Origin: a bacterium
GTDB lineage: Bacteria; J088; JAWLBW01
Assembly: GCA_041690355.1 (NCBI GenBank)
Contig: JAWLHK010000006.1
Span: 186,001-250,000, forward strand
Reading direction: 5' to 3'
DNA: 64,000 bases
Program-made: the position numbers and the translations under genes
The notes under the pieces: model-generated
Database searches by the model: none
Seen by the model: only the letters and a program-made list of their open reading frames with translations
Told to the model about the DNA's origin: nothing
Shown here: piece by piece, positions 18,048-50,180 of the stretch
Position numbering within the stretch: the first letter of the stretch is position 1
Layout: each line of letters starts with the position of its first letter

Positions 18048-18859
18048 GCAGCGCGCTCGAAACCGTTTTCCGCAACCGGGCCGCCGGCCGTCATGCCGCG
18101 CTCGTGACCTACATCATGGCGGGCGATCCCGATCTGGCGACCTGCATCGACCTCGCGCTCGCGCTCCAGGACGCCGGCGCCGACGTCATCGAATTCGGCG
18201 TGCCGTTTTCCGATCCGATCGCCGACGGTCCGGTCATTCAGGCGGCCGGCCTGCGCGCCCTCGCGAACGGGACGACTCTTTCTGCCGTGCTCGAGGCCGT
18301 GGCCGAACTGCGCCGGCGCGGACTGAGAATTCCGCTCGTGCTCATGGGATATCTGAATCCGATTCTGCGTCTCGGCTATGCCGCCTTTGCCGACCGGGCC
18401 GCCGCGGCCGGCGTCGACGGCATCATCGTGCCCGATCTGCCCGCCGATGAAGGGGCGGCGCTGTTTGCCGAGCTCGACCGGACCGGCGTCGCCAGCATCC
18501 AGCTCGTGGCGCCGACCAGCCATGATGACCGGGTTCGCATCGTCTCGGAGCGCAGCCGCGGCTTTCTCTACTATGTCTCGCTGACCGGGGTGACGGGCGT
18601 GCGCGATCGCCTGCCCGACGACGTGGCCGAGCGCATCCTCCATGTTCGATCGCTCGCGAGAGTGCCCGTCGCTGTCGGGTTCGGAGTGAGCAGCCCCGAA
18701 ATGGCCCGGGCGCTCGGAAGTGTCGCCGACGGCGTCGTCGTCGGCAGTGCCATCGTGCAGCGCGTGGCCGAACACGGCGGTAAAGCCGTCACGCCGGTGC
18801 GTGAGTTCGTGGCCGGACTGCGCACCGCCCTCGACGAGGTTGAGCTTGCCGGGCTCTGA
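18044..18859 (+). CDS. trpA: Tryptophan synthase alpha chain
   Basis: YIMAGDP, EFGVPFSDPIADGPVIQ, YYVSLTGVTG, VGFGVS, DGVVVGSA. Confidence 0.97.
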   Translation: MSSALETVFRNRAAGRHAALVTYIMAGDPDLATCIDLALALQDAGADVIEFGVPFSDPIADGPVIQAAGLRALANGTTLSAVLEAVAELRRRGLRIPLVLMGYLNPILRLGYAAFADRAAAAGVDGIIVPDLPADEGAALFAELDRTGVASIQLVAPTSHDDRVRIVSERSRGFLYYVSLTGVTGVRDRLPDDVAERILHVRSLARVPVAVGFGVSSPEMARALGSVADGVVVGSAIVQRVAEHGGKAVTPVREFVAGLRTALDEVELAGL

Positions 18860-25100: not shown

Positions 25101-25339
25101 AAGGGGAGTGAGCGGGTCGCGGGCTCGTCCTTGACCTTTCGGCAGAAGGTAAACCCGTCCATCCGCGGCATTTTGGTGTCGCTGATGATCAGGTCGGGCT
25201 GGCTCGTGCGCACCAGTTCCCACGCCTCTTCGCCGTTTCGGGCTGAGGTCACGTTGTAACCAGCCTTCTTCAGGCTGATCGTCATCATGCTGAGGCTCTT
25301 CTCGTCGGCGTCGACGAGAAGGATCTTCGGCTTCGCCAC
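22187..25339 (-). CDS. Response regulator: REC + DUF4388 + Pro/Ala-rich linker + TM + periplasmic TPR array
   Basis: ILLVD...DLIISD(P-site)TKMP...YLTKP; FSGSLTDMGVVDLIQTME...WSDGTF...LIMEGMRRIDE; TM LAAAAALVLALGSAGAWFVL; many TPRs. Confidence 0.9.
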   Translation of the reverse strand: MAKPKILLVDADEKSLSMMTISLKKAGYNVTSARNGEEAWELVRTSQPDLIISDTKMPRMDGFTFCRKVKDEPATRSLPFIFLTREKSVDEKIRGLELGVDDYLTKPIYLKEVLARVKLLIEKREKVKGDYVSPDSQFSGSLTDMGVVDLIQTMEMGQKTGVVYMSRAGFQAQLAFEKGRLIDAILGNVRGEAAVYKLLIWSDGTFRIDFRDIKDFERSVNISTQGLIMEGMRRIDELVRIREQLPSLESCLAIDSQMILEEHPDQFPEKIENILAEFTGRQNIQQVVDKLPYDDLEVMEIVAKLYFQGFLMPVREGEVNLPVEAKDAPRESEPLFDLAPPVEDDTAEGDAAPKAAAREPAPPPAPPPVQDVSAQEPAAEVDVEEEIPVEFEEDPAADSEADVPGPAAAAPDAPAEKPQPAQRQKARPKQGKVIYLKGPGNAAAAAVESEPEPAPADPVPPPKPPAREISIQPKAPPAPAAPPAPQPRPAAKPASRPVAPPVIDPADLVPAAAASAAPAAPPARSKTPILAAAAALVLALGSAGAWFVLQDSTSGTSGTVNVAEFRDAALKLTGEDLEYYKGASLAMNLDTPTGYRSAIAGFETIVGRMQGWVDGTDQEIVLSKLILSYARLGASEDDEAPLRKAAELAAGYLSERPASLYLLLADAETRVRLRDFEGARAATGRIGNSAEAFYLYNFVVGLMRLQEGTVPDLALVALRKAVEQNPDFTLGHFELARAYDASKRPADAANHYKSVINHSPNHAEAHFQLSRMALDAGDSETGLKHVRTAVAVNGEYLPGRLLLSRLLVESGDYEGARPHLQTVIELARTGTNDDLLASARKLSGQVAEATGDLQRARREYELALQIAAGDPEATEALTRLQSGTATVAAAPAPARPAVREAPKPVIAARAEPQKPTPPPAPARTAAKAPAAGGEAAARAFAEAQNYYRRGYLKNAVAKLSESLKLNGNDDKAWALLGQIYIELEQNDNALKALQRAIALNARNADAHVNLGGLYDVMGDAKRADAAYRRYLQLEPNGRFANDVRKLLSSR

Positions 25340-26491
25340 TCAGGGACCTTTCAGGACGGTGATCTCGACCCGGCGGTTCTTTTCCCGGTTCTTTCGATTG
25401 ATGTTGGGCAACAGGGGCCGTTCGCCGCCGTACCCGCGCACCTCGAAGCGCGACGGATCGAGACCGAATTCGCGCACGAGATGGTCGCGGATGATCTCGG
25501 CCCGCTGCTGCGTCAGCTGCATGTTCGTCTCGGCGTCGCCCATGGAATCGGTATGGGCGTCGATGCTCACCCGCACGTCGGGCGCGGCCTGCAGCGCGCG
25601 GCCGAGGTTTTCGAGCACGCTCCGGTAATCTTCGTTCTTGAAGCTCGTCTTATCGAGCTCGAAATCGACCGCTTCGAGCACGAAATTCTCGCCCTGCAGG
25701 CGATCGAGAAACGCCTGGACGGCGGGCGACAGCACGGTCGGCTCATCGGCGGGCCCCGCCACGTCGTCGGAAACGGTGGGCGTATCGGCAGCCGTCGCGT
25801 CAGAGACGGGTTCCGGCCCGGCGACCGGTTCAGCGATCGCCTCGTCGGCGGGCGACGTCTCACTGGAGGCGACGACGGCCGGGGCCAGAGGAACCAGGCC
25901 GGGCGTACCGCATGCCCCGGGCGCGGCGGGTCGATCGCCGAGCAGCACCATCGGGCTCACAAGTTCGCCGGCAACGTAAAAGGCAGAGGCGCTCAGGAGC
26001 GACGGACCCTCGCGCAGCGGCTCCGGGGCGTAGCTGCCGTTGGCGGCATAGACGACACGACCCGTGCGCACGTCGACGATACGCAGGCTCACGGTGAGCT
26101 CGGGACGCCCGTCGCCGGGCCGGTAGCCGAACTCGCTGACAGACCCGACGATGACCGCATCGGCCTGCAGGGCGCGGCCGATCTCGGCCGCGGCGACGGG
26201 GTCGGGACTCAGGCTGAAATCGGGGCGGGTAGCCAGGTAGCGCTGAACCTCGGTGCGCTCTACGACAGAGAACCGGGCATGGGCGAGAAGCGCGTCGCCC
26301 AGGGCATCCGCAAAGACCAGGCCGGCGCCGCGGGCGCGGCTTACGTTCTCGAAAGGAGTCACCACCACGCAGCTGAAGGCGAGGGCGGCATTACGATCCT
26401 GGTGAACGATGGTGCGCGTGGGCGCGCAGGCCGGCAGGATGGCAAATGCGCCGAGCAGGAGGGCGGCGGATGCGGCCAGGCGGCGGATCAT
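25340..26491 (-). CDS. Lipoprotein with PelC/CsgG/GNA1162-like domain fused to an OmpA peptidoglycan-binding domain
   Basis: LPA-C lipobox; VTPFEN...IGRALQADAVIVGSV; HTDSMG..NMQLTQQRA...GYGGERP...NRRVEI. Confidence 0.85.
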   Translation of the reverse strand: MIRRLAASAALLLGAFAILPACAPTRTIVHQDRNAALAFSCVVVTPFENVSRARGAGLVFADALGDALLAHARFSVVERTEVQRYLATRPDFSLSPDPVAAAEIGRALQADAVIVGSVSEFGYRPGDGRPELTVSLRIVDVRTGRVVYAANGSYAPEPLREGPSLLSASAFYVAGELVSPMVLLGDRPAAPGACGTPGLVPLAPAVVASSETSPADEAIAEPVAGPEPVSDATAADTPTVSDDVAGPADEPTVLSPAVQAFLDRLQGENFVLEAVDFELDKTSFKNEDYRSVLENLGRALQAAPDVRVSIDAHTDSMGDAETNMQLTQQRAEIIRDHLVREFGLDPSRFEVRGYGGERPLLPNINRKNREKNRRVEITVLKGP

Positions 26492-27105
26492 GGCGTCACC
26501 CCGTCGGCTGCCGGATGCAGTGCCGTCACCAGATCGGCGACGGCAATCTGGGCCACCGAAGCGAGCGGTTCGCGACTGACGGCCAGCAGTTCGCCGCTGG
26601 TGCGGTTCGCACGCGCCGTCCAGACGATCTCGCCGCTGCGCGGGTCGACCAGGCGCAGCGTGACACCGACGACGGAGTCGAGGCGGCGGTTCAGCCGATC
26701 GACGCGGTCGCCGTATTCGACGACCGTGCCGTAGAAGACGCCGTCCAGATCCAGGGCGCGGCCGACCTCGATGGCCGCTGTGCGGTCGAGCACCGGCGGC
26801 AGCCCCTGGTTGAGCGTCGAGAGACGGCGGGCGACTTCATGCCGCTCGACGATGACGTCATAGCGCGCGCTCCGGTAGAGCGACGCGGCCAGCAGATCGG
26901 AGACGACGTCCGGCGCGGTGCGGTGTTCGGTCAGATTCTCGAGCGGAAGGATCGCGACGCGGCGCATGGCGCGCACCGTCTCGGGCTGAAGCGCGGCGGC
27001 ACGCTGTCCGTAGGAGGTGCAGCCCGTCAGGATGATGGCGAGGAGAATCGCCGCAAAGCTTGTGCGTGATTGCGTCAAATGGCCGACCCGGTTCCGAGGC
27101 ATCAA
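26488..27105 (-). CDS. PelC/CsgG/GNA1162-like lipoprotein
   Basis: LTG-C lipobox; VAILPLENLT, VGRALDLDGVFYGTVVEY, VGVTLRLVDPRSGEIVW, SREPLASVAQ. Confidence 0.82.
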   Translation of the reverse strand: MMPRNRVGHLTQSRTSFAAILLAIILTGCTSYGQRAAALQPETVRAMRRVAILPLENLTEHRTAPDVVSDLLAASLYRSARYDVIVERHEVARRLSTLNQGLPPVLDRTAAIEVGRALDLDGVFYGTVVEYGDRVDRLNRRLDSVVGVTLRLVDPRSGEIVWTARANRTSGELLAVSREPLASVAQIAVADLVTALHPAADGVTP

Positions 27106-36342: not shown

Positions 36343-37221
36343 TTACCAGCGGACGCGGATGCCCGTGCGGCCGGCGGTCGGGTCGGCAACCGGGTTGTCG
36401 GTCGGCCGCTGCGTCGCGTCGACGGGGACCTGCTCGTGGATGGTCTCGGTACGGTCGAGCAGGTCTTCACCACTGGGCGGCGGCGGTTCGTCGCCATCTG
36501 CGCCGTCCGAGCCGTCGCCGGTCGAGCCCGGATCGCCGTCGCCGTCGGACGAGCCGGATTCGTTTTTCGGGTCGTCCTTGTCGGCAGGATTGGCGTCGAA
36601 CCCGTCGCCGGCGCTCCCCGCCTCTTCGTGGGAAACGGCGCGTGGCTGCGACGGGTTGCCGCCATTGCCCTGCCTCGACTGCTGACGGGTCGAGACGACC
36701 ACGCTGCTCTGTTCCCTGGTGTTCGCCGGCGCGAAGACGACGGTTCCTTCGATTACGGTGAGCGTCGACTGATTCGTGTTTCGATCGTGTTCGAGCACGA
36801 GCGTCGTGCCGCGCACGCCGGCGACGGCGGTCGGCGTCTGGAACTTGAAGTCGGTGGGGCCGGCGACGAATTTGCTGACGGCGGCCTTCATCTTGCCGTA
36901 CCACATGCGGAATGCGCCCCGGCGAGAAGATGTCGAGGTGGCGAAGCCGTTTACCTGAAAGCGGGTCGCGGCGCCGATGCTGATGACGCTCTCGTCGTTC
37001 AGCAGGAGCTTGGCGACGCTTGCTTTGCCCGTCGTGAGTACGTCGCCGTTGTACACGCTCGCGCCCTGGGGCAGCCGGTAGCGCTTGCCGCCGCGCTCGA
37101 GCTGCACGGTTCCGGCGACGGCCGCAATCTTGCCGACGGGCGCCGGCGCCGCGGCCCGGGCGTCAGACAGCAGTACGGTGACCGAGAACAGCAGACTGAG
37201 AACGATTGCGATCGGCTTCAT
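36343..37221 (-). CDS. Secreted FecR-domain protein with acidic Gly/Asp tail
   Basis: Signal peptide; VYNGDVLTTG, FQTPTAVAGVRGT, VIEGTV; AAGGAG SD. Confidence 0.88.
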   Translation of the reverse strand: MKPIAIVLSLLFSVTVLLSDARAAAPAPVGKIAAVAGTVQLERGGKRYRLPQGASVYNGDVLTTGKASVAKLLLNDESVISIGAATRFQVNGFATSTSSRRGAFRMWYGKMKAAVSKFVAGPTDFKFQTPTAVAGVRGTTLVLEHDRNTNQSTLTVIEGTVVFAPANTREQSSVVVSTRQQSRQGNGGNPSQPRAVSHEEAGSAGDGFDANPADKDDPKNESGSSDGDGDPGSTGDGSDGADGDEPPPPSGEDLLDRTETIHEQVPVDATQRPTDNPVADPTAGRTGIRVRW

Positions 37222-37311
37222 GGGCGCTCCTTGGACGGGCTCGCAGGCAGACGCTGACGCGGCCGCCTTATGTTTATACCGCACACCGGCGTGCGAAGCA
37301 CGTGACGGCCG

Positions 37312-38700
37312 TCACGGAAACTGCCAGCGAACGTCGGCGCCGACCAGAACCTTGGCGTAACTGTCGGCCGTCAAGGTTATGTCGGCGGCGCGCAGGTTTT
37401 CATTGTTCGTCCAGGCGCCCGAAAGGCGGGCCCCCAGGCTGCCCCACCAGCGGCTGAGGCCGAGGGCGAGGGTCAGGGCCTGATCGGTCCGGTCGACGGG
37501 CTGAGCCAGGTACGGGGTGAGCGCGAAGTCGAATGCGGCGTCGGCCACCAGCCCCGCCCCCACTTCGCCGCCGCCGAACAGACGGATGACCGCCAGGTCG
37601 TACTTCCAGTAATCGTCCTGCGACCGGTTCTGCTCATAGCTCCCGCCGAGGCCGAGATAGTTCGTGCGGCCCCAGAAGAAGAACTGCGTCAGCTCGGTGC
37701 GCCGGTTCACGCTGTCACGCCCGTCGAATGCGTAGTCATCGGCCCGCCACTGCCACGCGAGGCTGGTCGCCAGGCTGCTCCCTTCGGCCACCATCAGCCG
37801 CGGCGTGACGAGCCCGGCACGCTTATAGTAGTTGAAGTCGAGCGTCCAGTAGTCGGCGCCGAGCCCCAGTCCGATGCGCACGGGCAGGGTGCCGATGCGG
37901 TACTGGCCGTCGAGGCGCAGGTTGTGCACGCCGAGGTCGAAGGGCTGATGCACGGGCTTGAAGTAGCGCCCCTGATTGATGCCCGCGGCGATCTCGGCGC
38001 GAAAGGGTTTGGTCTCGAGCAGCGCATAGCGCCCCTGCGCATTCACGACGGCCCGCCACCCGTCGGCGTCGGCGGTGCTGGCGGGTAGCAGGAGGACGTT
38101 CGAATCGTAGCGCAGCCCCGCATCGACCGAGAGGGCCAGCTTCTGCTGCGCACGGCGGCGCTGAATGTCGGCGATGCCCGCCCGCGCCTCGTCGGCGAGC
38201 GCGCCGGCCGACTCGAGCTGCAGAAGGCGCTCGAAACTCTGCTGCGCCGTCACCAGGTCGCCGGCCGACATGGCCATCTTGCCGGCCTCGATGAGCGCGC
38301 GCGAGCCGAGCGGCCCCCGGAGCCGGGCCGCCTGCGAGTAGGCCCGATGCGCTTTCTCCCGGTCGCCGAGCGCTTCCCATGACTTGCCGAGAAAGAAGGC
38401 GGCGTCGCCGGCCAGGGGGCCGCGCAGGGGCGCAGCACTCAGAATGTCGACGGCCTCGCGATGGCGTCCGAGGCGCGACAGCGAGATGCCCAGCGGCAGC
38501 AGTACGTCGGGATCGTCGGGCCTCGCCGACCGGGCTCGTTCCAGGTAGACCACGGCACGCTCGTCCCGGCCCAGGCGAAAGAGCGTCGAGCCGATCTCGA
38601 CGTCGGTTTCCCAGGGGGCATCCTGGGCGCCGACAGGGCCCGGAAAGAGCAGGAAGATGGCGAACAGGACCAGAAGGGTCGGCAGGGTGTACTTGCGCAT
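37312..38700 (-). CDS. TPR-containing outer-membrane beta-barrel protein (Slam/DUF560-like architecture)
   Basis: Signal peptide; about 4 TPRs; GLRYDSNV barrel-start motif; amphipathic strands; C-terminal VRWQFP. Confidence 0.8.
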   Translation of the reverse strand: MRKYTLPTLLVLFAIFLLFPGPVGAQDAPWETDVEIGSTLFRLGRDERAVVYLERARSARPDDPDVLLPLGISLSRLGRHREAVDILSAAPLRGPLAGDAAFFLGKSWEALGDREKAHRAYSQAARLRGPLGSRALIEAGKMAMSAGDLVTAQQSFERLLQLESAGALADEARAGIADIQRRRAQQKLALSVDAGLRYDSNVLLLPASTADADGWRAVVNAQGRYALLETKPFRAEIAAGINQGRYFKPVHQPFDLGVHNLRLDGQYRIGTLPVRIGLGLGADYWTLDFNYYKRAGLVTPRLMVAEGSSLATSLAWQWRADDYAFDGRDSVNRRTELTQFFFWGRTNYLGLGGSYEQNRSQDDYWKYDLAVIRLFGGGEVGAGLVADAAFDFALTPYLAQPVDRTDQALTLALGLSRWWGSLGARLSGAWTNNENLRAADITLTADSYAKVLVGADVRWQFP

Positions 38701-38816
38701 GTGCGTAACGCGGCGATCTTCAGGGTGAAGCGGTAGCCTAGCAGGTCACGACGCAACGCGCTAGTCGGCGGCGGAACTCGGGAGGCGGGTGGGTTGCCGG
38801 AGTGTGATCGGGATCG

Positions 38817-38845
38817 TTGTGAGGGGTCGGGGGCTATGGTACGAT
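38817..38845 (+). promoter_or_regulatory. sigma70-type promoter of the giant lipoprotein gene
   Basis: TTGTGA-17 nt-(TG.)TACGAT. Confidence 0.55.
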
Positions 38846-38921
38846 TGCTCCCGGCGTGCCGCCCCACGAGCGGCACGCCTTCGACTCCTATCGGTTTTCT
38901 CCGAGTCTTTCGGGGGGGGAT

Positions 38922-41900
38922 ATGGCACCAGCGAAGGCTACGGCGCGGCTTCTGACCGGCGCGTTGCTCTTTTTTCTTTCAGCCGCTTGCGGCGGCGGCG
39001 AGCCGGGCGGGCTTGCCTTCAGGGCACATTTTCCCGACCACGTGTCTTTCGGAGATACCCGCGGCGACCTCCGGCCCGCGGCGTACCGTACGGCGGGCTA
39101 CGACACCGCGGTGACGCTGTCGACGGTTCGCGTCCTGCTTGCGCGCGACGGAGCCGTCGTCAAGACCGAGACCTTCAGCGCCGCCGCTCGCGAGGCCGAA
39201 CTCATCGGCATCGAACCGGGCATGTACCAGGTGACCGTCGAGGGGCTCGTGGGGGCAACCGTCGTGGTGCGCGATCGGAAAAACGGCATTCACGTTCCGT
39301 CGGCCACGGTCGCAGACGCGGGTGAGTTCTTTCTGAGCCCCGTGAAGCCGCGCCGCCCCGTCCTGAGCGCATACCCCGCTCCGATCACGAACCAGGCCGC
39401 ACTGGTTCTCGAAGGGACGAAGGAGATGTACACCGGCGTCTCGCTCGGAGGCCGTACGGTGGTGGCGCCCGATGAGAAGAAAACCTTCCGCCACGACGTC
39501 CGGCTGGCCGAGGGGGCCAACGCGCTGGTTCTCGCGGCCGTGAACCGTCTCGACGAGCCCGGTGAGACGCTCGCGCTGAACGTCACGCTCGATACCCAGC
39601 CGCCGGCTATCTCCCTGCTTCACCTGTCCAACTCGGCGACTGCCGTCAGCACGACGGCCGTCACGCTCGAACTGCGCGCCGAAGGGGCCAGCGCGATGAA
39701 GCTGAGCGAGTCGACGGACTTCACGGGGGCCGTCTGGCAACCGTTCAGCGCGGCGCCCCGGTTCACGCTGTCGGCGACGCCGGGGTTGAAGACGATCTAT
39801 GCCCTCGTGCGGGATCGCGCCGGCAACGTGAGCGAGCGGCAGAGCCTCGTGGTCACCTACGATACGACCCCTCCGCCGGCGCCGCAGGTCGGCATGGCCG
39901 GCGGGGCCGTCTACTCCCGCACGCGCACCGTCGTTCTTCAGGTTGCGGCTGCCGGGGCGACCGAGGTGCTCGTGCAGGAGGCGGGTACTGCGGCGGGCGC
40001 CTGGCAGGCGCTTGCGACCCAGGTCCCCTTCACGGTGTCGGCCGGCGACGGCCCGAAATCGCTGCTCGTGCGCGTGCGCGACGCCGCCGGAAACATCTCG
40101 CAGGCCTCGGGGGTCGAGGTCACGCTCGACGCAACTCCGCCGTCGACGCCGGGAGCGCCTGTTTTCAACGCCAATCCCGTGACGGGCCCGGTGTCGTTCT
40201 CCTGGACGCCGGCAACCGACGTGACGTCTGGCGTGAAACAATACGTCTATCAGTACAGTGCCGACGGGGGATCGGTCTGGGGAGGCAACCTCGTCGCCGT
40301 CGGTACGTCGGCGGGGATCGTGCTCGATTTCTCCGGCACCTATCTTTTCCGCGTCGCCGCGGTTGACTTCGCGGGAAGTACGGGTCCGTGGTCTGTGAAT
40401 TCGGTGCCCCTCGTCGTGTCCGATTCGGCGCCAACCGCGCCGGGGACGCCGACGTTCGCCGCCAACCCGGTCAGCGGACCGACCATCGTTTCGTGGACGG
40501 CCGCCACGGATCCGGGATCGAACATCGAGCTCTATCAGCTCGAGACCAGTATCGACGGCGGCACCACCTGGCAGCTAGTGCTGACCACGGCGTCCACGAG
40601 CGGCCAACTCACCCCGGAAGTGGAGGGGACCCTTCTCGTTCGGGTCCGTGCGATCAACGCGCTCGCCGTAAGCGGCCCCTATTCCACGGAAGCCGCGTTG
40701 ACGGTAGACCTGACGCCGCCGGTTCTGGAGTCGATCAGCATTGGTGGAGGCGGTTTCACCAATGTTCCGCTGATCACGGTCACGCTCCCGGCATTCCAGG
40801 CGCTTGAATATCAGCTCTCCGAAGACCCGGCCTTTGCGGGCGCGGTCTGGGCGGCATTCGATCCGAGCCCTGCATTCAACCTTGCGCCGGGGGATGGAAG
40901 CCGCACGGTCTATGCCCGGGTACGCGATGCGGTGGGCCATGTCTCGACCGTGCAGAGCGCATCCGTGGTGCTCGATACGCTCTCTCCGGGGGCGCCTGTC
41001 GGCCCGTCCTTCAGCGCGAATCCGGTCTCCGAGTCCGTGCAGATCAACTGGAGCGTGGTCACTGATTCAGGCAGCGGCGTCGAGCAGTACCTGGTCGAGG
41101 AGTCGACCGATGGGGTCACGTTCGGGTCGACCCTGGCCGTAACCGGTCCCACGGCGGATATCTTTTATTTCCTCACCTCGCAGACCCTCTATTACCGCGT
41201 CCAGGCGGTTGATCGTGCGGGGAACGCCGGATCGTGGTCGACGGTCATCGGGCCTTTGACCGTCGATCGCTCGCCTCCGTCGGCTCCGGGAGTACCGGCA
41301 CTTTCGACGACGCTCACGAATACGTCGGTCTCGTTGACCTGGGACCCGGCCGTCGATGTCGACACGGCGATCGTGAGCTACGATATCGAAAAGACTGTCG
41401 ACGGCGGCGCGACATGGTTTCCCCTCGGTTCGACGGCAGGGACGTCGTTCACCTATTCCGTTTCCGTACCCGGCCAGCTCCAGTTCCGCGTCCGCGCGCG
41501 CGATCAGGTCGGCCACGTGGGCGCCTATTCCACAAGTTCGGCCCCTCTTGCCGTGGATTTGACGGATCCGGTCGTGAGCCTGTTCGAAATCAACGGCACC
41601 CCGGCTTTCGTCGGCATGCTGTCGGTCGACCTGAACATGGACGCAAGCGACGACACGGGGGTCGAACAGTTCGAGATTGCCAACGACGCCGGCTTTCAGT
41701 TCGCGCAGGCCGTGTCTTATCAGACCAGCTACCTGGGATGGGCACTGGGTGGCGGCGATGGTGTCCAGACCATCTATCTTCGCGCCCGCGACGGCGCCGG
41801 TAATTACTCGGCGGTGGTCAGCACCACGACGATTCTCGATACGACGCCCCCCGCGTCCGTCGCCAACATAGGTTTTTCTGCCAATCCGGTTTCTGACACG

Positions 41901-44900
41901 GTGACCCTGACCTGGAGCGGCGGTAGCGACACCGGCTCCGGATTCGCGAGCTTCAACGTCGAGCGCAGCGACGACGGGGGAGCCACCTGGGGACTCTTCG
42001 GCGTTCCGACGACCCCCAGCTTTCTCGAAGAGGCCATGGTAGACGGCGACTATACATACCGGATCGCCGCCGAAGACGCCGTCGGCAACGTGGGTGCGCC
42101 GTCCTTGTCGGGATTGCTGGTGGTCGACACCCTCGAGCCCGTATTTTCAGGCGCCGTCTCTTTCTCCAGCAATCCGGTCACAGGCAGCGTACAGCTCGTC
42201 TGGCCGAGCGCGAGCGACGATCGCGGCACGATTGCCGGATACGATGTGGGGCGCTCCGCCGACGGCGGCGCGACCTGGGTCTATGTTGCCCGCGACCTCG
42301 CCGGTACGAGCTACATCGATACGGGTATCCCCGCCGGCGAATACATGTACCGGATCCGCGCCCGCGACCCGGCCGGTAACGGAACCTATCTCCTTTCGGG
42401 TCTGTTGACGGCCGACGACGGCCCCCCGCCGGCCCCGGATGCGCCGGTTGCCAGCGCGACGGTCACGAACTCCCCGATGATCACCGTCTCCTGGAATGCG
42501 GTAACCGACCCCACCGGAATCGCCAACTACGATGTCGAGCAGACGAGCGACGGGGGGTCGATCTGGAATCCGGTGACGACGACTGCGTCTGCTTCGATCA
42601 TGACGACCCTCACCGACGGCGTCTACGGGTTCAGAGTCAGGGCCCGGGACAACAGTGGGCAGGTCTCTGCCTGGTCATCTCCCAGTGCCACCGTGACCGT
42701 CGACACCCAGATGCCTGATGTGGTTATCGATGCCCCGCTGCCCGCGACCTGGTACGGCGCCGGACTCATGGCTTCGGGCACCGCGACCGACTTTGGTTCC
42801 GCGGGGCTCACCGAGGTCGCCTACGCGGTTTTCGACGGCGCTCTCTACTATGACGGCACAGGATTTTCGTCGGGAACCCCCGTCTGGCTTCCGGCGGCGG
42901 GGCTCGCTTCCTGGACTGCCGACCTGAGCCTGCTGCCCCCGGGCAGCTATACGCTCGAGGCGCAGGCCACCGACGCCGCGGGCAATCTTTCGCTCGTGGC
43001 CCAGGTTTCGTTCGGGATCGACGCCGCGCCGCCGACCTGCGGCGTCTGCGCGACGCTGACCGGCGACGCCGACACCTATGCCACCACGTCGGCCGTCACG
43101 CTCGCCAGCGACGTGGTCGACGATACGACGCTCGAGGCCATGGTCACCGGCGACATCGCCGACGCGTTTGCGGGCACCTGGGTTGCCTGGGAAGGCACCT
43201 TGGGCCTGACCCTGACGGCGGGCGAGGGGACCAAGTTCGTCGACGTCAGCTTCCGCGATCAGGCGGGCAATCTCTCGGGACCTCACTCGACTTCGATTAC
43301 CTTCGACGAGACGCCGCCGACCGCCCCTGAAGCCTTGAGCTTCACGGCGAATCCGGCAGGGGCGAGCTATTCCGTTCTCTGGTCGGCCTCGGACGGCAGC
43401 TGGCTTCCGGTTGCCGACTATGAGGTGGAACGCAGCGTCGACGGAGGCGCTTCGTGGACCCCGCTGGGAACCGTGGTTCCCACGCAGTACGACGAAACCG
43501 GTATGGCGCACGGCACGTACGTCTATCGGGTGCGGGCCCGAGACACCCTGAGCCGATACTCGGCATTCTCCCTGCCGGCGACCGTCTCGGTCGATCTGCA
43601 GCCGCCGGCCGTGACGATGTTCGATCCCTATCCGCAATCCTACTCGTTCGCCCCCACGGTGACGGGTACGGCGCAGGATGAAAGCGCGCTGGGCGTGATG
43701 CAGGTCGAGGTCAACCTCAGCAACGGCAGCCTGTTCTGGGATGGGGCGGCTTTCACATCGCCGGGCATCGTCTGGCTTGCGGCTTCGGGCGCCGAATCCT
43801 GGTCCTGGCCACTGCCGGGACTGGCTGACGGCACGTATTTCGTCGAGGCGCGGGCCACCGACTACGCCAACAACATCGGCGCCCAGAGCGGGCCGCGGCC
43901 GTTCACGATTGACACCCTGACCCCCGCCTGCTCTTTCTGCGTGGCCGTCGAGCCCATGAAGGGGAATTATCCCTTCGCTACCGAAACAGCGGTCAACCTG
44001 CACTTCGATGTTTCGGGTGAAACCGGCCCGGTCGAAATGCGCATTACGGGGGATGTCACCGATCCGTGGGCCGGGACGTGGGTACCATACGCCTCGCCGG
44101 TTTCGGCCATGCTGACGGCCGGTGACGGTGTCAAGACCGTCTATGCGGAATTCCGCGACGCGGCCTTCAATGCGACCGGCGTCTACTTCGACAGCGTGAC
44201 GCTCGATACCGCCGGCCCCAGCCTTTTCGGCATTACCCTCGCGGGCGGCGCGGTGGCCGTGAGCGAACCAACGATTTCGCTCGCGCTGAGCGACAGCGGC
44301 GGCGCGGCGCTCCTGGCCGTCACCGGTGAAACCGTTGAGTTCCAGATTCGACCCTATGCGCCGTTCACGACGACGACGCTCGCCTATGCTTCGGCCGCGA
44401 CGTTCTACAATAGCGGCCAGGCCGAGCTCATTTATGATGGCGTTCTCCAGAGCGACGGCAAGCTGGTCGTCGCCGGCTCGCGCTACAACGGCGCCGACGG
44501 TGACATGCTTCTCGCCCGCTTCACCCCGAACGGCACGCTGGACGCAGGCTTCGGTGCCGGGGGCATCGTCAGCCTCGACATCGGCGGCACCAATGCGGCC
44601 GACTACGCTTATGCCGTCACCGTGCAGACCGACGGCAGAATCGTCGTCGCCGGTTCGAGCGGCCCCTCGGCCTTCGTCGCCCGCTTCACGCAGAACGGCT
44701 CGCTCGACACGCTCTTCAGCGGTGACGGCAAGCATTTCCAGAACGGCGGCATCTCGAGCTACTTCTCGGCCGTCCAGGTGCAGGCAGACGGCCGGATTCT
44801 CGCGGCCGGCACCAACGTGCTCGCCAGCAACGAGAACGTCTATCTCATGCGCTTCAACACCGACGGCACCCCCGACAACGCGTTTGGCTCGCTCGGGATC

Positions 44901-47900
44901 GCCGAAGTCGATCTGTCACCCTCGAGCATCGACCGCGCCTACGGCCTCGCCCTGCAGGCCGACGGCCGGATCGTCATCGCCGGCCGTCTCGACGCCGGCA
45001 CCTCGTTCGTGGCGCGCCTGCAGAGCGGCGGCGCGCTCGACACGTCGTTCAACGGCACGGGCGTCGCGACCATGAATCCGGGCGGGCAGAGCCTCTTCAA
45101 CGAAGTGGCCGTTCAGGATGATGGATTCATCGTGGCGGTCGGACAGGCGCAGCCCGCGACGCAGTTCGATGCGACCGTCGCGCGCTTTACCCCCGAAGGC
45201 GGGCCCGACAACGGATTCGCCGACAACGGCCTTTTCATCCACCCGTTTTCGGCGGCCGCCGATTATGCCGTAGACCTCTCCATCGACGAAAAGGGTATTG
45301 TCGTGGCCGGCTATGGTTACGGAAACGGAAACGACGATTACTTGGTCTTCCGCCTGCGGCCGAACGGGCAGCTCGATGACAAATTCGGGACGCAGGGTCA
45401 CAGGTGGGCCGACATGTCGGGGGGCACCGACAACGCCCGCGCCATGGTGCGGCTTGCCGACGGCCGCATGGCGCTCATCGGCGACGCAGCCGTTTCGGGG
45501 AACCAGGACCTGGTCATCGCCCAACTGCTCCCCGACGGCCGCCCCGACGGCAGCTACGGAATGGCGTCTGACAGTCTGAAGACAGTCTGGGTGCGCATCG
45601 CCGATGAGGCGGGCAACTGGAGCGACCCGGTCAGCGCGGCCATCGATCTGGATCGGGCGCCTCCGGGGGGCGGTATCGCGCTTCCCGCGTCGGCTACGGA
45701 TGCGCTCGTCAGCGTCAATCTGCTCGCCACCGACGCGAACGGACCGATTGAAATGATGCTGAGCGGCGATATCACGGATCCCTTCCGCAATACGTGGATC
45801 GGGTATCAGAGTAACATCACGCTGACCACCACGGCCGGGCGCGGCACGAAGACCGTGACGGTGCGCTTCCGCGACGCTCTGGGCAACACGGGGCCGGTGA
45901 AATCGGATTCGACGCTGCTCGATGTGCCCGAAAGCTATACGCTCGGGGTCACGTCGGGCACGGGCAACGAGGTCGTGCTCATCTCGGGCGCGGGTTATGG
46001 CGCTCTCCAGGGAACCGGCTATGTCGACATCGGCGGCTTTTCGGCCATCATCAACAGCTGGTCCGACACGACCATCGAATTTCTGGTTCCCGAGGGCGTT
46101 CCTGCGGGTCCGCGCGATGTGATGGTCGTGCGCGATGACGGCCTCGATGCCAATCTGCTCCCGTTCGACGTACGCCCCTCAATCATTTCCGACCTTTCGG
46201 GGGTGGTCACGGGCGGCGATACCTTCGTGGCCAGCGGGACCAACTTCGAAGCCGGACTCACCGCGACCCTGGATGGAAATCCGGTTTCCATCAGCGCGGT
46301 ATACTCGAACGAATTCCACGTCACCGTCGACACCGCACAGGAGCCGGGTTCGTGGCCCCTCGTCGCCACGGTAAACGGCCGGGAGTCGAACCCCTACTTC
46401 ATCGCGATTCGCCCGAACATCGTGTCGCTCGACCTTTCGTCGGCCGCGGGCGGCGACGTCGTGACCATTACCGGGCACAACTTTGGTGCCGCGCTCGGCA
46501 CAGTCCTGGTCGACGCTGCGCCCGTTGTCGCCTCCTATTGGGACAATACGACCATCACATTCACCCTGCCCAACGAGACGAACCCGGGCAGCCGGGTCGT
46601 CATGGTCGAAGCGGGGGGCGAGCAGAGCAACACCTGGGGTCTCAACGTCGCCATGACGCTGGTGAGCGCGCTGCCCAACTTCGCATCGGGCAATGAACAG
46701 ATCGCCATCTCGGGCGCCAACTTCGGCGCCACGCAGGGAACGGTCGAGTTCGACGGTTCACCGCTTTCGATCGTCAGCTGGACGAGCACGGTCATCGAAG
46801 CGCTGTTGCCGCCGGAGCCCGAGGCCGGACCGGGCACACTCTCGGTGACCGAAGGCTATGCGTTTTCGACGACGTCGATGGCCTACACGATGGCGGCCCG
46901 CATCACCGAGGTAACCCCGGTGACGGTCACCCCCGACGACATGATTGTCATTCGCGGCACCAACTTCGGCGCCGTGCAGGGTGCGAACACAGTCGACGTC
47001 GGAGGAATCTCGGCCGGCATCCTTTTCTGGGGCACTCGTGAAATTCAGGCCACGGTGCCGAACGGTATCCAGCCGGGTACCCGGTTCGTTTCGGTCGACG
47101 TTGCGGGCGCGCCTTCGAACACGGTGGCCCTGACCGTCAAACCCGAGGTCAACTATGTCTCGCCCGGTCCGGGCGCGACGGGCGGCGAAAACATCACGAT
47201 CTCGGGTGCGGCTTTCGGAGATGTAATGGGTTCGGTTACCGTCGGCGGCATTTCCGCTCCGGTAGCTTCATGGTCGAACTACAGCATCAGTGCGACCGTG
47301 CCGACCAGCGTCGCGGCCGGCTGGCGTGACGTGGTCGTGACCGCGGCCGGGCAGGCGAGCCCGCCGTGGTCGTATGCCATCAAGCCGGGGGTGACGGCGC
47401 TTTCGCCCGCGACCGGCCCCGTGGGGACCGTCGTGCAGATTCTCGGCCACAACTTCGGGCCCCCGGTCACCGGAAACGCGGTCGAAATCTATGGCGTGTC
47501 GGTGACGCCGGATACGTGGACAGACACGCAGATCACGTTCACGGTGCCGCCGCTGCCCAACGGTCTCGCTTCGGTGGCCGTCATCGTCGATTTCCAATAC
47601 AGCCAGTACCTGAACTTCAACGTCGTGCCCGGCGTACCGGTCATCGACTCGGCGCCGGCAACGTCTCAACCGAATGACACGGTCATCATTCTGGGCTCGC
47701 ATTTCGGCGACTTCCAGGGCGACAGTCAGGTCTTCTTCGGGGGGAGCCAGGCGTTCGTGAACTCGTGGAGCGATACGAGTCTCGAAGTCGTCATGCCTCC
47801 CTACGCCGCCCCCGGCACGCTCGAAGTCTGGGTGCGCACGGCCGGCGGAGAGTCGAACCGGGTGCCGCTTGAACATCAGCGCCCGTGGATCGATCATCGC

Positions 47901-50180
47901 TATCCGCTGCACGTTTCCGACGGCGGCACCGTGACCCTGGTGGGTCGTTACTTCGGTCCCGACGATCCCTTGAACGCCATCGAGGCCGGCGGTTATGTCC
48001 AGACGCCCATCGCCTGGAGCCCGACGGCCATTACGTTCGCCATCAGCACGCCGACGGGCGGTGTCTTCGCCGTGAGGGTCACGCCGTCGGGGAACGGGAT
48101 GTCGAACGACGTCGCCGTGCACAAGCGCGGCAACGACCAGTGGATACCGCTCACCGATGGTCTGCTGGCGCGCACGGCACATTCCGCCGTCTGGACCGGC
48201 GCCGAAATGATCGTCTGGGGCGGCGCCATGGGCAGCTACGAGGTGAATACGGGGGGGCGCTACAATCCGCTCACCGACACCTGGACACCGACGAAGAACA
48301 GCGAGTTCGGCGGCCAGCCCTCGCCGCGTCGCGACCATTCTGCCGTATGGAGCGGTGAAAAGATGCTGATCTTCGGCGGCTATGGCGGCGGCCTGCACCT
48401 CGATGATCTGTACGCCTACGATCCGGCGACCGACGTATGGGAGACGCTGCCCACGAATCCGTCGGGCGGCCGCAGCCGGCACGCGGCCGTCTGGACCGGC
48501 CGGCAAATGGTGGTCATCGGCGGCACCAACGGGTCGCCCCTTTCTGCGGTATCATCGTATGATCCGGGCACCTACACCTGGGGCAGCGATCTCGCGATGG
48601 CCGCCCCGCGTGAAGGCCACATTGCCGTGTGGACCGGCAAGGAGATTCTCGTCCACGGCGGCGGAGAATTCTCGCCGGGCTCGGCGCTCGAAATCATCGA
48701 CCCGTTCGGCTGGACCATCCAGAGCGGACCCGACAGCCTGGCCCCGCGGTCCGGGCATGTCGGCGTCTGGACCGGCAGCGAACTGATCGTCTGGGGCGGC
48801 ACGGATGCCGGACGGCTGAATTCGGGCGAGCGCTTCGACGGAACGACCTGGTCGGCCATCGAGTCTTCGCCGCTGGTCGCCCGTACCGGACACACAGCCG
48901 TCTGGGACGGCTCGGCCATGGTCGTCTGGGGCGGCGAAGACGACGGCGGCACGTTCCGCGCCGACGGCGCCCGGTACGAGCCGGGCATCGGCTGGTCGTT
49001 GCTGCCGACCGCGGGTGCTCCGGCAGGCCGCCGCGGACACACGGCGCTCTGGACGGGCGTCGAGATGCTCGTCTGGGGAGGCGAAGCGGGTTCGGCAGCC
49101 AGCCTTCATCTGGCGCCGTTCGGTGCCCGTTACAATCCGCAGGCAGACGTGTGGAACCCTGTTTCCAACCCCGAATCCATCGCGCCGCGCATGGAACACT
49201 CCGCTCTCTGGACGGGTGCCGAGATGATCGTCTGGGGGGGCATGGACGCCGTGGCGAACTCGGTCCTGAGTGACGGCGCCCGTTTCCTGCCGGCGAGCAA
49301 CACCTGGATGCCCATCGCCGCCACCGGGCCCACCGGGCGTACGGCGCACACGGCGGTCTGGGCCGCTGACCGCATGCTGATTTTCGGCGGCTGGCTTGGC
49401 GCCGTACCCATCGGCGAAGGCTGGAGCTATGCGCCGGATACCGATTCCTGGACTCCGCTTCCGGGCACGAACGCGCCGTCGTCGCGTGGCAATCACTCGG
49501 CTGTGTGGACCGGAACCGACATGATCGTCTGGGGGGGCATGGACAACGGCTTCACCGAGGTCGGCGACGGGGCGCGCTTTCATGTCGCATCCGACCAGTG
49601 GTATCCGCTGGGAACGACCGGCGCTCCCGAAGCCCGCTACGATCACGCGGCCGTCTGGGCCGGCGATCGCATGCTGGTCTGGGGCGGACGGAATTCTTTC
49701 GTGCTCAATACGGGCGCCTATTACGATCCGGCCCAGGACGCATGGTTTGCGACACCTTTGACGGCGGTCCCCGAAGCGAGGTTGAATGCGAGCGCGGTAT
49801 GGACGGGTTCAGAAGTCCTGATCTGGGGCGGGAGTAACAATGTGTCGAGCCATGACACGGGCGCCCGGTGGGACCCTGCCGGCAATGCCTGGACGGCCAT
49901 GAGCACGGTGTTCCCCCCTGCGGCTCGCGAGCGCCACGCCGCCGTCTGGGCCGGAACCGCCATGGTGGTGTACGGGGGGGTGGATCTCGGCAGCACGCAT
50001 TACGGTGACGGCGGCGTTTATGATCCCGTGCAGGACACCTGGACGATGCTTCCGTGGAACAACCTCTATCCGCGTGCCGACGCTTCGGCGGTCTGGACGG
50101 GCAGCGAGGTCATCGTCTTCGGAGGGGGGAATTCTTCTGTCGGCGTCAGCTTCTCCGACGGCGCGATGTATCTTCCCTGA
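38922..50180 (+). CDS. Giant (3752 aa) multi-domain surface lipoprotein/adhesin: Ig-like and FN3 repeats, delta-60 propeller, IPT/TIG repeats, Kelch-like double propeller
   Basis: LSAA-C lipobox; repeated D..PP / RD.AGN Ig modules; SxDGGxxW FN3 loops; 7 QxDGxIVVAG...GxLDxxF repeats; 9 GxNFG IPT repeats; 14 RxxHxAVWTGxEMIVWGG repeats. Confidence 0.92.
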   Translation: MAPAKATARLLTGALLFFLSAACGGGEPGGLAFRAHFPDHVSFGDTRGDLRPAAYRTAGYDTAVTLSTVRVLLARDGAVVKTETFSAAAREAELIGIEPGMYQVTVEGLVGATVVVRDRKNGIHVPSATVADAGEFFLSPVKPRRPVLSAYPAPITNQAALVLEGTKEMYTGVSLGGRTVVAPDEKKTFRHDVRLAEGANALVLAAVNRLDEPGETLALNVTLDTQPPAISLLHLSNSATAVSTTAVTLELRAEGASAMKLSESTDFTGAVWQPFSAAPRFTLSATPGLKTIYALVRDRAGNVSERQSLVVTYDTTPPPAPQVGMAGGAVYSRTRTVVLQVAAAGATEVLVQEAGTAAGAWQALATQVPFTVSAGDGPKSLLVRVRDAAGNISQASGVEVTLDATPPSTPGAPVFNANPVTGPVSFSWTPATDVTSGVKQYVYQYSADGGSVWGGNLVAVGTSAGIVLDFSGTYLFRVAAVDFAGSTGPWSVNSVPLVVSDSAPTAPGTPTFAANPVSGPTIVSWTAATDPGSNIELYQLETSIDGGTTWQLVLTTASTSGQLTPEVEGTLLVRVRAINALAVSGPYSTEAALTVDLTPPVLESISIGGGGFTNVPLITVTLPAFQALEYQLSEDPAFAGAVWAAFDPSPAFNLAPGDGSRTVYARVRDAVGHVSTVQSASVVLDTLSPGAPVGPSFSANPVSESVQINWSVVTDSGSGVEQYLVEESTDGVTFGSTLAVTGPTADIFYFLTSQTLYYRVQAVDRAGNAGSWSTVIGPLTVDRSPPSAPGVPALSTTLTNTSVSLTWDPAVDVDTAIVSYDIEKTVDGGATWFPLGSTAGTSFTYSVSVPGQLQFRVRARDQVGHVGAYSTSSAPLAVDLTDPVVSLFEINGTPAFVGMLSVDLNMDASDDTGVEQFEIANDAGFQFAQAVSYQTSYLGWALGGGDGVQTIYLRARDGAGNYSAVVSTTTILDTTPPASVANIGFSANPVSDTVTLTWSGGSDTGSGFASFNVERSDDGGATWGLFGVPTTPSFLEEAMVDGDYTYRIAAEDAVGNVGAPSLSGLLVVDTLEPVFSGAVSFSSNPVTGSVQLVWPSASDDRGTIAGYDVGRSADGGATWVYVARDLAGTSYIDTGIPAGEYMYRIRARDPAGNGTYLLSGLLTADDGPPPAPDAPVASATVTNSPMITVSWNAVTDPTGIANYDVEQTSDGGSIWNPVTTTASASIMTTLTDGVYGFRVRARDNSGQVSAWSSPSATVTVDTQMPDVVIDAPLPATWYGAGLMASGTATDFGSAGLTEVAYAVFDGALYYDGTGFSSGTPVWLPAAGLASWTADLSLLPPGSYTLEAQATDAAGNLSLVAQVSFGIDAAPPTCGVCATLTGDADTYATTSAVTLASDVVDDTTLEAMVTGDIADAFAGTWVAWEGTLGLTLTAGEGTKFVDVSFRDQAGNLSGPHSTSITFDETPPTAPEALSFTANPAGASYSVLWSASDGSWLPVADYEVERSVDGGASWTPLGTVVPTQYDETGMAHGTYVYRVRARDTLSRYSAFSLPATVSVDLQPPAVTMFDPYPQSYSFAPTVTGTAQDESALGVMQVEVNLSNGSLFWDGAAFTSPGIVWLAASGAESWSWPLPGLADGTYFVEARATDYANNIGAQSGPRPFTIDTLTPACSFCVAVEPMKGNYPFATETAVNLHFDVSGETGPVEMRITGDVTDPWAGTWVPYASPVSAMLTAGDGVKTVYAEFRDAAFNATGVYFDSVTLDTAGPSLFGITLAGGAVAVSEPTISLALSDSGGAALLAVTGETVEFQIRPYAPFTTTTLAYASAATFYNSGQAELIYDGVLQSDGKLVVAGSRYNGADGDMLLARFTPNGTLDAGFGAGGIVSLDIGGTNAADYAYAVTVQTDGRIVVAGSSGPSAFVARFTQNGSLDTLFSGDGKHFQNGGISSYFSAVQVQADGRILAAGTNVLASNENVYLMRFNTDGTPDNAFGSLGIAEVDLSPSSIDRAYGLALQADGRIVIAGRLDAGTSFVARLQSGGALDTSFNGTGVATMNPGGQSLFNEVAVQDDGFIVAVGQAQPATQFDATVARFTPEGGPDNGFADNGLFIHPFSAAADYAVDLSIDEKGIVVAGYGYGNGNDDYLVFRLRPNGQLDDKFGTQGHRWADMSGGTDNARAMVRLADGRMALIGDAAVSGNQDLVIAQLLPDGRPDGSYGMASDSLKTVWVRIADEAGNWSDPVSAAIDLDRAPPGGGIALPASATDALVSVNLLATDANGPIEMMLSGDITDPFRNTWIGYQSNITLTTTAGRGTKTVTVRFRDALGNTGPVKSDSTLLDVPESYTLGVTSGTGNEVVLISGAGYGALQGTGYVDIGGFSAIINSWSDTTIEFLVPEGVPAGPRDVMVVRDDGLDANLLPFDVRPSIISDLSGVVTGGDTFVASGTNFEAGLTATLDGNPVSISAVYSNEFHVTVDTAQEPGSWPLVATVNGRESNPYFIAIRPNIVSLDLSSAAGGDVVTITGHNFGAALGTVLVDAAPVVASYWDNTTITFTLPNETNPGSRVVMVEAGGEQSNTWGLNVAMTLVSALPNFASGNEQIAISGANFGATQGTVEFDGSPLSIVSWTSTVIEALLPPEPEAGPGTLSVTEGYAFSTTSMAYTMAARITEVTPVTVTPDDMIVIRGTNFGAVQGANTVDVGGISAGILFWGTREIQATVPNGIQPGTRFVSVDVAGAPSNTVALTVKPEVNYVSPGPGATGGENITISGAAFGDVMGSVTVGGISAPVASWSNYSISATVPTSVAAGWRDVVVTAAGQASPPWSYAIKPGVTALSPATGPVGTVVQILGHNFGPPVTGNAVEIYGVSVTPDTWTDTQITFTVPPLPNGLASVAVIVDFQYSQYLNFNVVPGVPVIDSAPATSQPNDTVIILGSHFGDFQGDSQVFFGGSQAFVNSWSDTSLEVVMPPYAAPGTLEVWVRTAGGESNRVPLEHQRPWIDHRYPLHVSDGGTVTLVGRYFGPDDPLNAIEAGGYVQTPIAWSPTAITFAISTPTGGVFAVRVTPSGNGMSNDVAVHKRGNDQWIPLTDGLLARTAHSAVWTGAEMIVWGGAMGSYEVNTGGRYNPLTDTWTPTKNSEFGGQPSPRRDHSAVWSGEKMLIFGGYGGGLHLDDLYAYDPATDVWETLPTNPSGGRSRHAAVWTGRQMVVIGGTNGSPLSAVSSYDPGTYTWGSDLAMAAPREGHIAVWTGKEILVHGGGEFSPGSALEIIDPFGWTIQSGPDSLAPRSGHVGVWTGSELIVWGGTDAGRLNSGERFDGTTWSAIESSPLVARTGHTAVWDGSAMVVWGGEDDGGTFRADGARYEPGIGWSLLPTAGAPAGRRGHTALWTGVEMLVWGGEAGSAASLHLAPFGARYNPQADVWNPVSNPESIAPRMEHSALWTGAEMIVWGGMDAVANSVLSDGARFLPASNTWMPIAATGPTGRTAHTAVWAADRMLIFGGWLGAVPIGEGWSYAPDTDSWTPLPGTNAPSSRGNHSAVWTGTDMIVWGGMDNGFTEVGDGARFHVASDQWYPLGTTGAPEARYDHAAVWAGDRMLVWGGRNSFVLNTGAYYDPAQDAWFATPLTAVPEARLNASAVWTGSEVLIWGGSNNVSSHDTGARWDPAGNAWTAMSTVFPPAARERHAAVWAGTAMVVYGGVDLGSTHYGDGGVYDPVQDTWTMLPWNNLYPRADASAVWTGSEVIVFGGGNSSVGVSFSDGAMYLP

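Follow-up and report, generated by a model that had tools for sequence, protein, structure and literature searches.

A Slam-like outer-membrane barrel and its FecR-domain partner beside a giant lipoprotein gene: a probable envelope module with plausible ties to CHASE2 cyclases

The stretch of DNA analysed here, referred to as the window, comprises 64,000 nucleotides of a bacterial genome (GTDB lineage J088; JAWLBW01; assembly GCA_041690355.1, contig JAWLHK010000006.1, positions 186,001 to 250,000), and the system in question is a triad of genes encoding an outer-membrane barrel protein with tetratricopeptide repeats (TPR), a secreted protein with a FecR domain and, on the opposite strand, a giant lipoprotein. 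The barrel and FecR genes are a widespread two-gene core, in which the FecR protein is the constant partner downstream of the barrel. The triad is a real, conserved envelope module, which we take to be of the kind of Slam and the type 11 secretion system (T11SS), with a FecR subunit and a plausible tie to CHASE2 signalling through cyclic AMP (cAMP); its three genes probably form one outer-membrane system, which may also feed cAMP signalling. The observations that carry this view are the architecture of the barrel protein, its pairing with FecR, a C-terminal tag on FecR that goes with the barrel, the recurrence of a lipoprotein neighbour and the co-occurrence of CHASE2 cyclases.

Results

The barrel and FecR genes form a conserved pair

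Three long open reading frames (ORFs) fill the region, all with a strong third-position G+C bias on a window of about 66% G+C. The gene for the FecR-domain protein (36343..37221, minus strand) encodes 292 residues from its likely start, the ATG at 37221, the ORF reaching a GTG at 37284, and is preceded on the same strand by the gene for the barrel protein (37312..38700, 462 residues). The giant lipoprotein gene (38922..50180, plus strand) encodes 3752 residues from the ATG at 38922, within an ORF of 38856-50180. A preliminary description of this DNA had placed a divergent region of 221 bp between the pair and the lipoprotein gene, and this length is exact for a start at ATG 38922; the region then occupies 38701..38921, as given by the coordinates of the barrel start and of the giant's ATG, and a scan of it for the sigma-70 consensus returned no sites.

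The FecR protein scores 50.5 bits with PF04773, whose cut-off is 24. Its N-terminus is a cleavable signal peptide without a cysteine, and it has neither a membrane span nor a cytoplasmic anti-sigma domain. The FecR domain (36739..37044, minus strand) holds the segment TAVAGVRGT (T131-T139), which is invariant across 30 family sequences, including the dipeptide G138-T139 (36805-36810, minus strand) in a GT-x-F context. A low-complexity acidic linker of Gly, Asp and Pro (36415..36678, minus strand, limits approximate), which recurs with variable length across the FecR family alignment, leads to the C-terminal sequence TGIRVRW (36346..36366, minus strand), in which hydrophobic residues alternate and the last residue is aromatic; linker and ending had both been described before and are seen in the translation. 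In sequence, this strand tag resembles the last-strand signal of outer-membrane proteins, and we read it as a possible docking strand for the barrel. FecR of E. coli cleaves itself at Gly181/Thr182 (PMC12036975), and the invariant Gly-Thr of the family resembles this site, to which it may be equivalent. The best NCBIfam matches of the protein are the leptospiral FecR-like Lsa33 and LipL45, far below their cut-offs.

Metagenome loci were fetched by alignment of the FecR protein alone (pattern TAVAGVRGT), giving 506 relatives, and the best 80 were kept and then searched with a profile of the barrel only. The barrel gene lies directly upstream of FecR on the same strand in 33 of these 80 loci and upstream with an intervening gene in two (L026, L057), while a weaker barrel match falls on a downstream TPR protein in four; 29 evaluable loci have no barrel and 12 are too short upstream to judge. 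Of the 33 barrel-linked FecR proteins, 19 carry the strict form of the strand tag, a pattern set after the data were seen; none of the 24 complete barrel-less proteins does, their tails being unrelated to it (LAAYLKEVTLD or Thr/His runs, for example). The C-terminal motif common to the FecR relatives is Q-P-P-x-V ... G-x-L-G-[IV]-x-F.

The whole triad recurs in the sole other genome of the same family (G001), which has the barrel, a FecR orthologue ending in PTGIRVRW and a divergent lipoprotein of 4664 residues; its presence there with the same FecR ending is more than chance. Synteny is kept at a barrel identity of 57%, and within the divergent region a 24-nt block is conserved between the two genomes (38799..38822, plus strand), whose left half-site, TGTGA, is strong and of the CRP/FNR type, its right half being weak; with as many as four mismatches allowed, the block has no second occurrence in the genome. 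The 40 relatives compared include one genome of the same family and three of the same phylum, so that the host phylum is a small one. A search of genome contigs for related loci (alignment A3) returned only the contig of G001, and the corresponding search of metagenome contigs (alignment A4) returned none.

Several FecR loci show forms of their own. Barrel-less FecR proteins with Thr/His-rich tails (...TTTTHHH) were found in L022, L028, L033, L038, L056 and L077, and in L028 the gene for a radical SAM/SPASM enzyme next to FecR hints at a modified C-terminal tail. Four loci are inverted (L011, L024, L061, L063), with FecR first, carrying a tail like K-T-K-V-I-V-x-P, followed by a TPR protein of 628-676 residues with a weak barrel match. 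At L057:8001-11165 the FecR domain heads a protein of 1054 residues with Ig-like (Big_6) repeats, and the gene for a 23S rRNA intervening-sequence protein stands between the FecR and barrel genes.

The barrel protein is remotely related to Slam

The barrel protein carries a signal peptide, and Pfam detects only TPR repeats in it. In an AlphaFold2 model built with a 35-sequence alignment (A5), with a mean predicted local distance difference test score (pLDDT) of 92.8, helices of a periplasmic TPR domain, also found by Pfam TPR families, span residues 28-185 (38146..38619, minus strand) and 14 strands make up a beta-barrel over residues 188-461 (37318..38139, minus strand); the protein's own C-terminal end is VRWQFP. 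The alignment was used for refolding since residues 191-462 had stayed below pLDDT 50 in the model from the single sequence. Slam barrels have 14 strands as well.

A likeness to Slam/DUF560 barrels had been suggested in the preliminary description, and it holds as remote homology by sequence comparison and not as family membership by the Pfam criterion: PF04575 (SlipAM/DUF560) gives no match to the window barrel at E <= 0.1, and the relation is apparent through intermediates. A word-based search with the whole protein was dominated by TPR matches and yielded one true relative, so the barrel part (278 residues) was used instead, in an exhaustive search of 1.84 billion cluster representatives at E <= 0.001. 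This found 34 proteins, five of them close and the others of 300-530 residues with the same layout. Four of the 34 pass the PF04575 gathering score, as does the metagenome barrel of L078, and many of the 34 have sub-threshold TPR_Slam matches. By hhalign, a profile of the six closest relatives aligned to one of the six distant relatives with a probability of 99.9 and an E of 6.7e-34 over 406 columns, across both TPR and barrel, a comparison that is partly circular since the distant set had been found with the window barrel. We call the barrel Slam-related because intermediates pass PF04575, the profiles align and the model combines TPR helices with 14 strands.

The best Foldseek matches in the PDB were BcsC (E 3.2e-12), CymA, OmpG, PelBC and FadL, with TM-scores of about 0.35 for BcsC and PelBC, and no Slam entry was seen among the 50 matches listed. 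NCBIfam gave weak BcsC and PrsT matches on the TPR part, and a PDB sequence search with profile A1 returned TPR proteins only.

A lipoprotein gene adjoins the pair

In the metagenome loci a lipoprotein gene lies directly upstream of the barrel gene on the same strand; in its product, a cysteine is followed by a tether rich in Gly and Ser and by an N-terminal domain common to the family. When the 16 loci that extend 1.1 kb or more upstream were searched with a profile of this domain, 12 had it ahead of the barrel; of the other four (L019, L048, L057, L068), L019 has an unrelated lipoprotein directly downstream of FecR instead. Pairwise comparison within the family gave E values of 3e-4 to 1e-73 in 33 of 36 pairs. 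The C-terminal parts vary, being propellers of the YncE/lactonase type, beta-helices of the NosD type, an NHL propeller or nothing, and the proteins end in propeller repeats or Pro/Thr tails, not in an 8-strand barrel. No lipoprotein adjoined FecR in the 19 long barrel-less FecR loci. The regular expression used for lipoprotein calls found 38 lipoprotein-like starts in 550 kb.

The shared N-terminal domain is unknown to Pfam and has a conserved Cys-Cys pair; its bearers (L021, L025, L044, L045, L050, L052, L054, L055, L064, L067, L076, L078) are always encoded directly upstream of the Slam-like barrel.

Three such modules are present in the genome of the window, on contigs C6, C24 and C4. The order on C24 is barrel, FecR and a lipoprotein of 700 residues, and on C4 it is barrel, FecR, two lipoproteins of 286 and 494 residues and a FadL-type barrel. 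A lipoprotein thus neighbours all three modules, as well as the pair in G001. The giant and the lipoproteins of the paralogous modules had no detectable similarity to one another, nor to the N-terminal domain of the metagenome lipoproteins; the link to lipoproteins is therefore one of position and lipidation and not of a recognisable domain. The preliminary description had named as its refutation a lack of association between barrel-FecR pairs and large lipoproteins elsewhere. It was not refuted on this count, as pairs elsewhere do adjoin lipoprotein genes, although most of the products are of 285-1062 residues and not giant. Matches to LolA and to the Omp85/BamA family are present in the genome.

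The giant, read from ATG 38922, opens with MAPAKATARLLTGALLFFLSAAC (lipobox ...FLSAAC) and continues with GGGEPGG, a pattern match that predicts a lipoprotein signal; the lipobox cysteine (38988-38990, plus strand) follows the signal peptide and precedes a Gly-rich tether. The lipobox of the G001 orthologue is LGGC (...AALGGC). Along the giant, we found fn3 and Big_13 domains, delta-60/DUF5122 propeller repeats, eight TIG stretches and terminal Kelch propellers, the last forming a C-terminal beta-propeller region (48105..50177, plus strand; from residue 3084 onwards, counted from the GTG) that Pfam matches as Kelch_KLHDC2 (E 2.6e-86) and Beta-prop_ATRN-LZTR1 (E 8e-69). For its N-terminal domain the ESM Atlas offered sub-threshold Ig-like leads only, with a best score of 0.84.

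CHASE2 cyclases and CRP-type sites accompany the pair

Genes for proteins with CHASE2 and adenylate cyclase domains follow the FecR gene in six loci (L044, L048, L052, L054, L080, L076), and L064, L035 and L067 have such genes as well, which brings the total to 9 among the 33 loci with the barrel directly upstream. A CHASE2 cyclase is also encoded nearby, a few kb off, in two of the four loci of the downstream arrangement, versus none of the 41 barrel-less or unevaluable loci. The genome of the window has two CHASE2 cyclases, on contigs C5 and C32, apart from all three modules.

CRP-type sites, defined as TGTGA-N6-TCACA with at most one mismatch, number 33 in the 4.64-Mb genome. Two of them lie directly upstream of the paralogous modules (C24:17970, C4:207145), where the chance expectation for such promoter-region sites is 0.0015 and 0.005, respectively, and the operon whose last gene is that of the C32 cyclase opens with a perfect site. 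In that operon (C32:11031-15171, L096) the cyclase is preceded by a secreted protein of 582 residues of unknown family, the perfect site lying 57 bp upstream of the gene for this protein. Many other CRP-type sites in the genome precede genes for exported proteins or lipoproteins.

Plasmid pAMI5 of Paracoccus aminophilus has a TPR gene, a FecR gene and a CHASE2 cyclase gene in succession, the TPR protein giving no match to the barrel profile. In a Sinorhizobium record a CHASE2 cyclase gene is convergent with a FecR gene; a tblastn search of plasmids with the FecR protein gave seven weak matches, none of them in Sinorhizobium. In print, CHASE2 cyclases of Campylobacterota cluster with FecR-domain and TPR proteins (PMC9239204), genes for a FecR-domain and a TPR protein are under the control of the cAMP regulator Clr of S. 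meliloti (PMC5498481), signalling to the CHASE2 cyclases CyaK, CyaD1 and CyaD2 requires NsrA, an outer-membrane protein (PMC7529298), and in Burkholderia a LysM-FecR protein adjoins a CHASE2 kinase (PMC5192318).

Other genes of the window

Pfam was run on 21 neighbouring ORFs from 18.7 to 62.7 kb, and these have housekeeping functions. Among them are no T1SS (type 1 secretion system) component, TonB receptor, ECF (extracytoplasmic function) sigma factor or CHASE2 protein, in agreement with the preliminary description, and no polysaccharide synthase or glycosyltransferase gene lies near the barrel. A separate envelope cluster (22187-27105, minus strand) includes a response regulator of 1050 residues with DUF4388 and TPR domains, along with two lipoproteins, one combining CsgG-like and OmpA domains and one resembling GNA1162. 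At 18720-21821 (plus strand) there is a DUF4175 protein of 1033 residues and unknown function.

Discussion

The reading that we favour, tentatively and at somewhat less than an even chance, is that the three genes make up one envelope system, a Slam-like module for the display or anchoring of lipoproteins in which FecR is the transducer. The giant would be lipidated and then carried by the Lol pathway to the outer membrane, where the periplasmic TPR arm would receive it and the barrel, in the fashion of Slam, might move its adhesin-like passenger to the surface or hold it there; export of the lipoprotein by the barrel is inferred by analogy with Slam. The terminal strand of FecR may attach it to the barrel, by beta-augmentation at the seam or in the lumen, and the rest of the protein would reach into the periplasm with the acidic linker as a flexible tether. 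From there, FecR of the relatives could signal to the CHASE2 adenylate cyclase what state the barrel or the lipoprotein is in; in the present genome one of the two distant cyclases could take the role of receiver, and cAMP with CRP would feed back on the expression of the module.

Several points weigh against such a display system. The window barrel falls outside PF04575, and the profile alignment that relates it to the distant set shares the circularity noted above. The giant lacks the barrel domain at the end of Slam cargo, as the preliminary description had recognised: Pfam gives it no match to the C-terminal 8-strand domain (TbpBBD or lipoprotein C), and it ends in Kelch propellers. Its N-terminal domain has no similarity, by phmmer or by the family profile, to the shared domain of the metagenome lipoproteins or to the lipoproteins of the paralogous modules. 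Its gene is divergent from the pair and not co-transcribed with it, an arrangement seen only in the two related genomes. Lipoproteins were called by regular expression and by eye, which missed at least one true case (L021). We also know of no route by which a folded passenger of about 400 kDa would pass a 14-strand barrel.

A serious alternative, though a less likely one, is a pure trans-envelope relay. The barrel would then be a receptor in the outer membrane, the role proposed for Sinorhizobium meliloti NsrA, and would signal through FecR to a CHASE2 cyclase; the lipoprotein would serve as co-receptor or be under the control of the relay, and the barrel would not export it. The restriction of CHASE2 cyclases to barrel-bearing loci (11 of 39 versus 0 of 41) argues for it, as do the gene row on pAMI5, the convergent genes of Sinorhizobium, the clusters of Campylobacterota (PMC9239204), the requirement for NsrA in signalling to CyaK, CyaD1 and CyaD2 (PMC7529298), the control of FecR-domain and TPR genes by Clr (PMC5498481) and the CRP-type sites upstream of the paralogous modules. 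However, none of the three modules of this genome adjoins a cyclase, and 24 of the 33 pairs show none, though many of their contigs are short; a relay would also leave the lipoprotein as the commonest third neighbour unexplained, and the nearest named family of the barrel is a translocon. A barrel-FecR relay had been offered in the preliminary description as the second option, and it too gains support, from the cyclases that follow the pair in 9 of the 33 loci.

Lipoprotein display and a signalling relay are not mutually exclusive. The most far-reaching reading is a device for adhesion sensing or mechanosensing, with a giant adhesin lipoprotein kept at the surface in or by the Slam-like barrel, FecR, docked by its strand and possibly self-cleaving, passing on the engagement of the adhesin to CHASE2 cyclases, and cAMP with CRP re-tuning the three modules; we regard this full scheme as improbable.

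Less probable still is that FecR is itself the cargo, which the barrel would secrete or display with the C-terminal strand as export signal, the giant being handled independently. T11SS cargo genes often lie directly downstream of the barrel gene, the position that the FecR gene occupies here. The tag tracks the barrel, the best NCBIfam matches of FecR, although far below cut-offs, are the surface proteins Lsa33 and LipL45, the FecR domain of L057 heads a long Ig-repeat protein, and T11SS exports soluble proteins too (PMC12282271). On the other hand, known cargo has an 8-strand barrel domain where FecR has one strand only, and the adjacent lipoprotein would be unexplained. CHASE2 sensor domains face the periplasm, and a periplasmic FecR would suit them better than a secreted one.

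We give the same slim chance to the view that the adjacency of the giant is coincidental, with the barrel and FecR acting alone and the giant reaching its place by another route. That the divergent giant is seen only in this genome (G000) and G001, of one family, and that no sequence link joins its N-terminal domain to the other neighbouring lipoproteins, would fit this view. Against it, lipoprotein genes adjoin the pair in independent loci as well as in each of the three modules of the genome, and at 57% protein identity G001 retains both the gene order and the 24-nt intergenic block. An exopolysaccharide exporter, a TPR-porin like BcsC, PelB or PgaA, to which the top Foldseek matches and the weak NCBIfam matches on the TPR part point, is scarcely credible given the low TM-scores, the 14 strands of the model, the lack of a synthase or glycosyltransferase nearby and a constant partner that is FecR and not polysaccharide machinery.

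To our knowledge, Slam/T11SS is the only dedicated route for surface lipoproteins of diderm bacteria. On the favoured reading of a display or anchoring module, the barrel would belong to a distant branch of Slam outside Proteobacteria, with a constant extra subunit, FecR with its strand tag, and with clients that do without the canonical cargo domain; it would also explain how giant adhesin-like lipoproteins come to be at the surface without a type 1, type 5 or type 9 secretion system (T1SS, T5SS or T9SS). If the adhesion-sensing scheme is true, type 11 secretion extends beyond Proteobacteria with a new obligatory subunit. We know of no input established for the CHASE2 sensor domain, and the core beside CHASE2 cyclases offers a concrete idea of how the outer membrane could feed this class of sensors; the module, if the idea is true, gives them a physical input from there.

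Comparison with known systems

The exopolysaccharide exporters BcsC, PelB and PgaA differ from the present barrel in having a larger barrel and polysaccharide synthases as neighbours, as opposed to 14 strands and no synthase here. The FecA-FecR-FecI system likewise pairs a FecR (PF04773) domain with an outer-membrane barrel, and the invariant Gly-Thr in its GT-x-F context resembles the E. coli self-cleavage site (PMC12036975), but the FecR protein of the window has a cleavable signal peptide only, in place of an anti-sigma domain and membrane span, its barrel partner is Slam-like with 14 strands, and no ECF sigma factor or TonB-dependent transducer was found among the scanned neighbours.

Closer are the CHASE2-FecR-TPR clusters, known from Campylobacterota, from S. 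meliloti CyaD1 with SMc02177 and from NsrA-CyaK, in which FecR and TPR genes accompany cyclases. Nine of the 33 related loci show the same association, as do Paracoccus and Sinorhizobium, the genome of the window has two such cyclases, and the CRP-type sites before its paralogous modules recall the control by Clr in S. meliloti (PMC5498481), although no cyclase adjoins any of the three modules. These clusters qualify the suggestion of the preliminary description that the system is undescribed: they are in print, but the available portions of the reports (PMC9239204, PMC5498481) name TPR proteins only and mention no Slam-like barrel, lipoprotein partner or C-terminal tag.

Slam/T11SS itself (PF04575; Slam1 and Slam2 of Neisseria, NilB of Xenorhabdus, HrpB) differs from the window system in several respects. 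T11SS has been described as proteobacterial (PMC12282271), whereas the present host belongs to a small non-proteobacterial phylum, and the window barrel itself fails PF04575. A FecR-domain partner is obligatory for the window barrel, while FecR is absent from the available main text of the T11SS paper (PMC12282271), and a literature search, supplements excluded, did not find FecR and DUF560 together in one paper. The cargo of cluster 1 T11SS is unified by a C-terminal 8-strand barrel domain (PMC12282271), which the neighbouring lipoproteins here do not have, one subfamily sharing an N-terminal domain instead, and the client in the window is of about 3750 residues. The likeness to Slam/T11SS lies in the periplasmic TPR arm joined to a 14-strand barrel, in the remote homology through intermediates that pass PF04575 and in the lipoprotein gene next door, 221 bp away in the window and recurrent in 12 of 16 metagenome loci, in all three modules of the genome and in G001.

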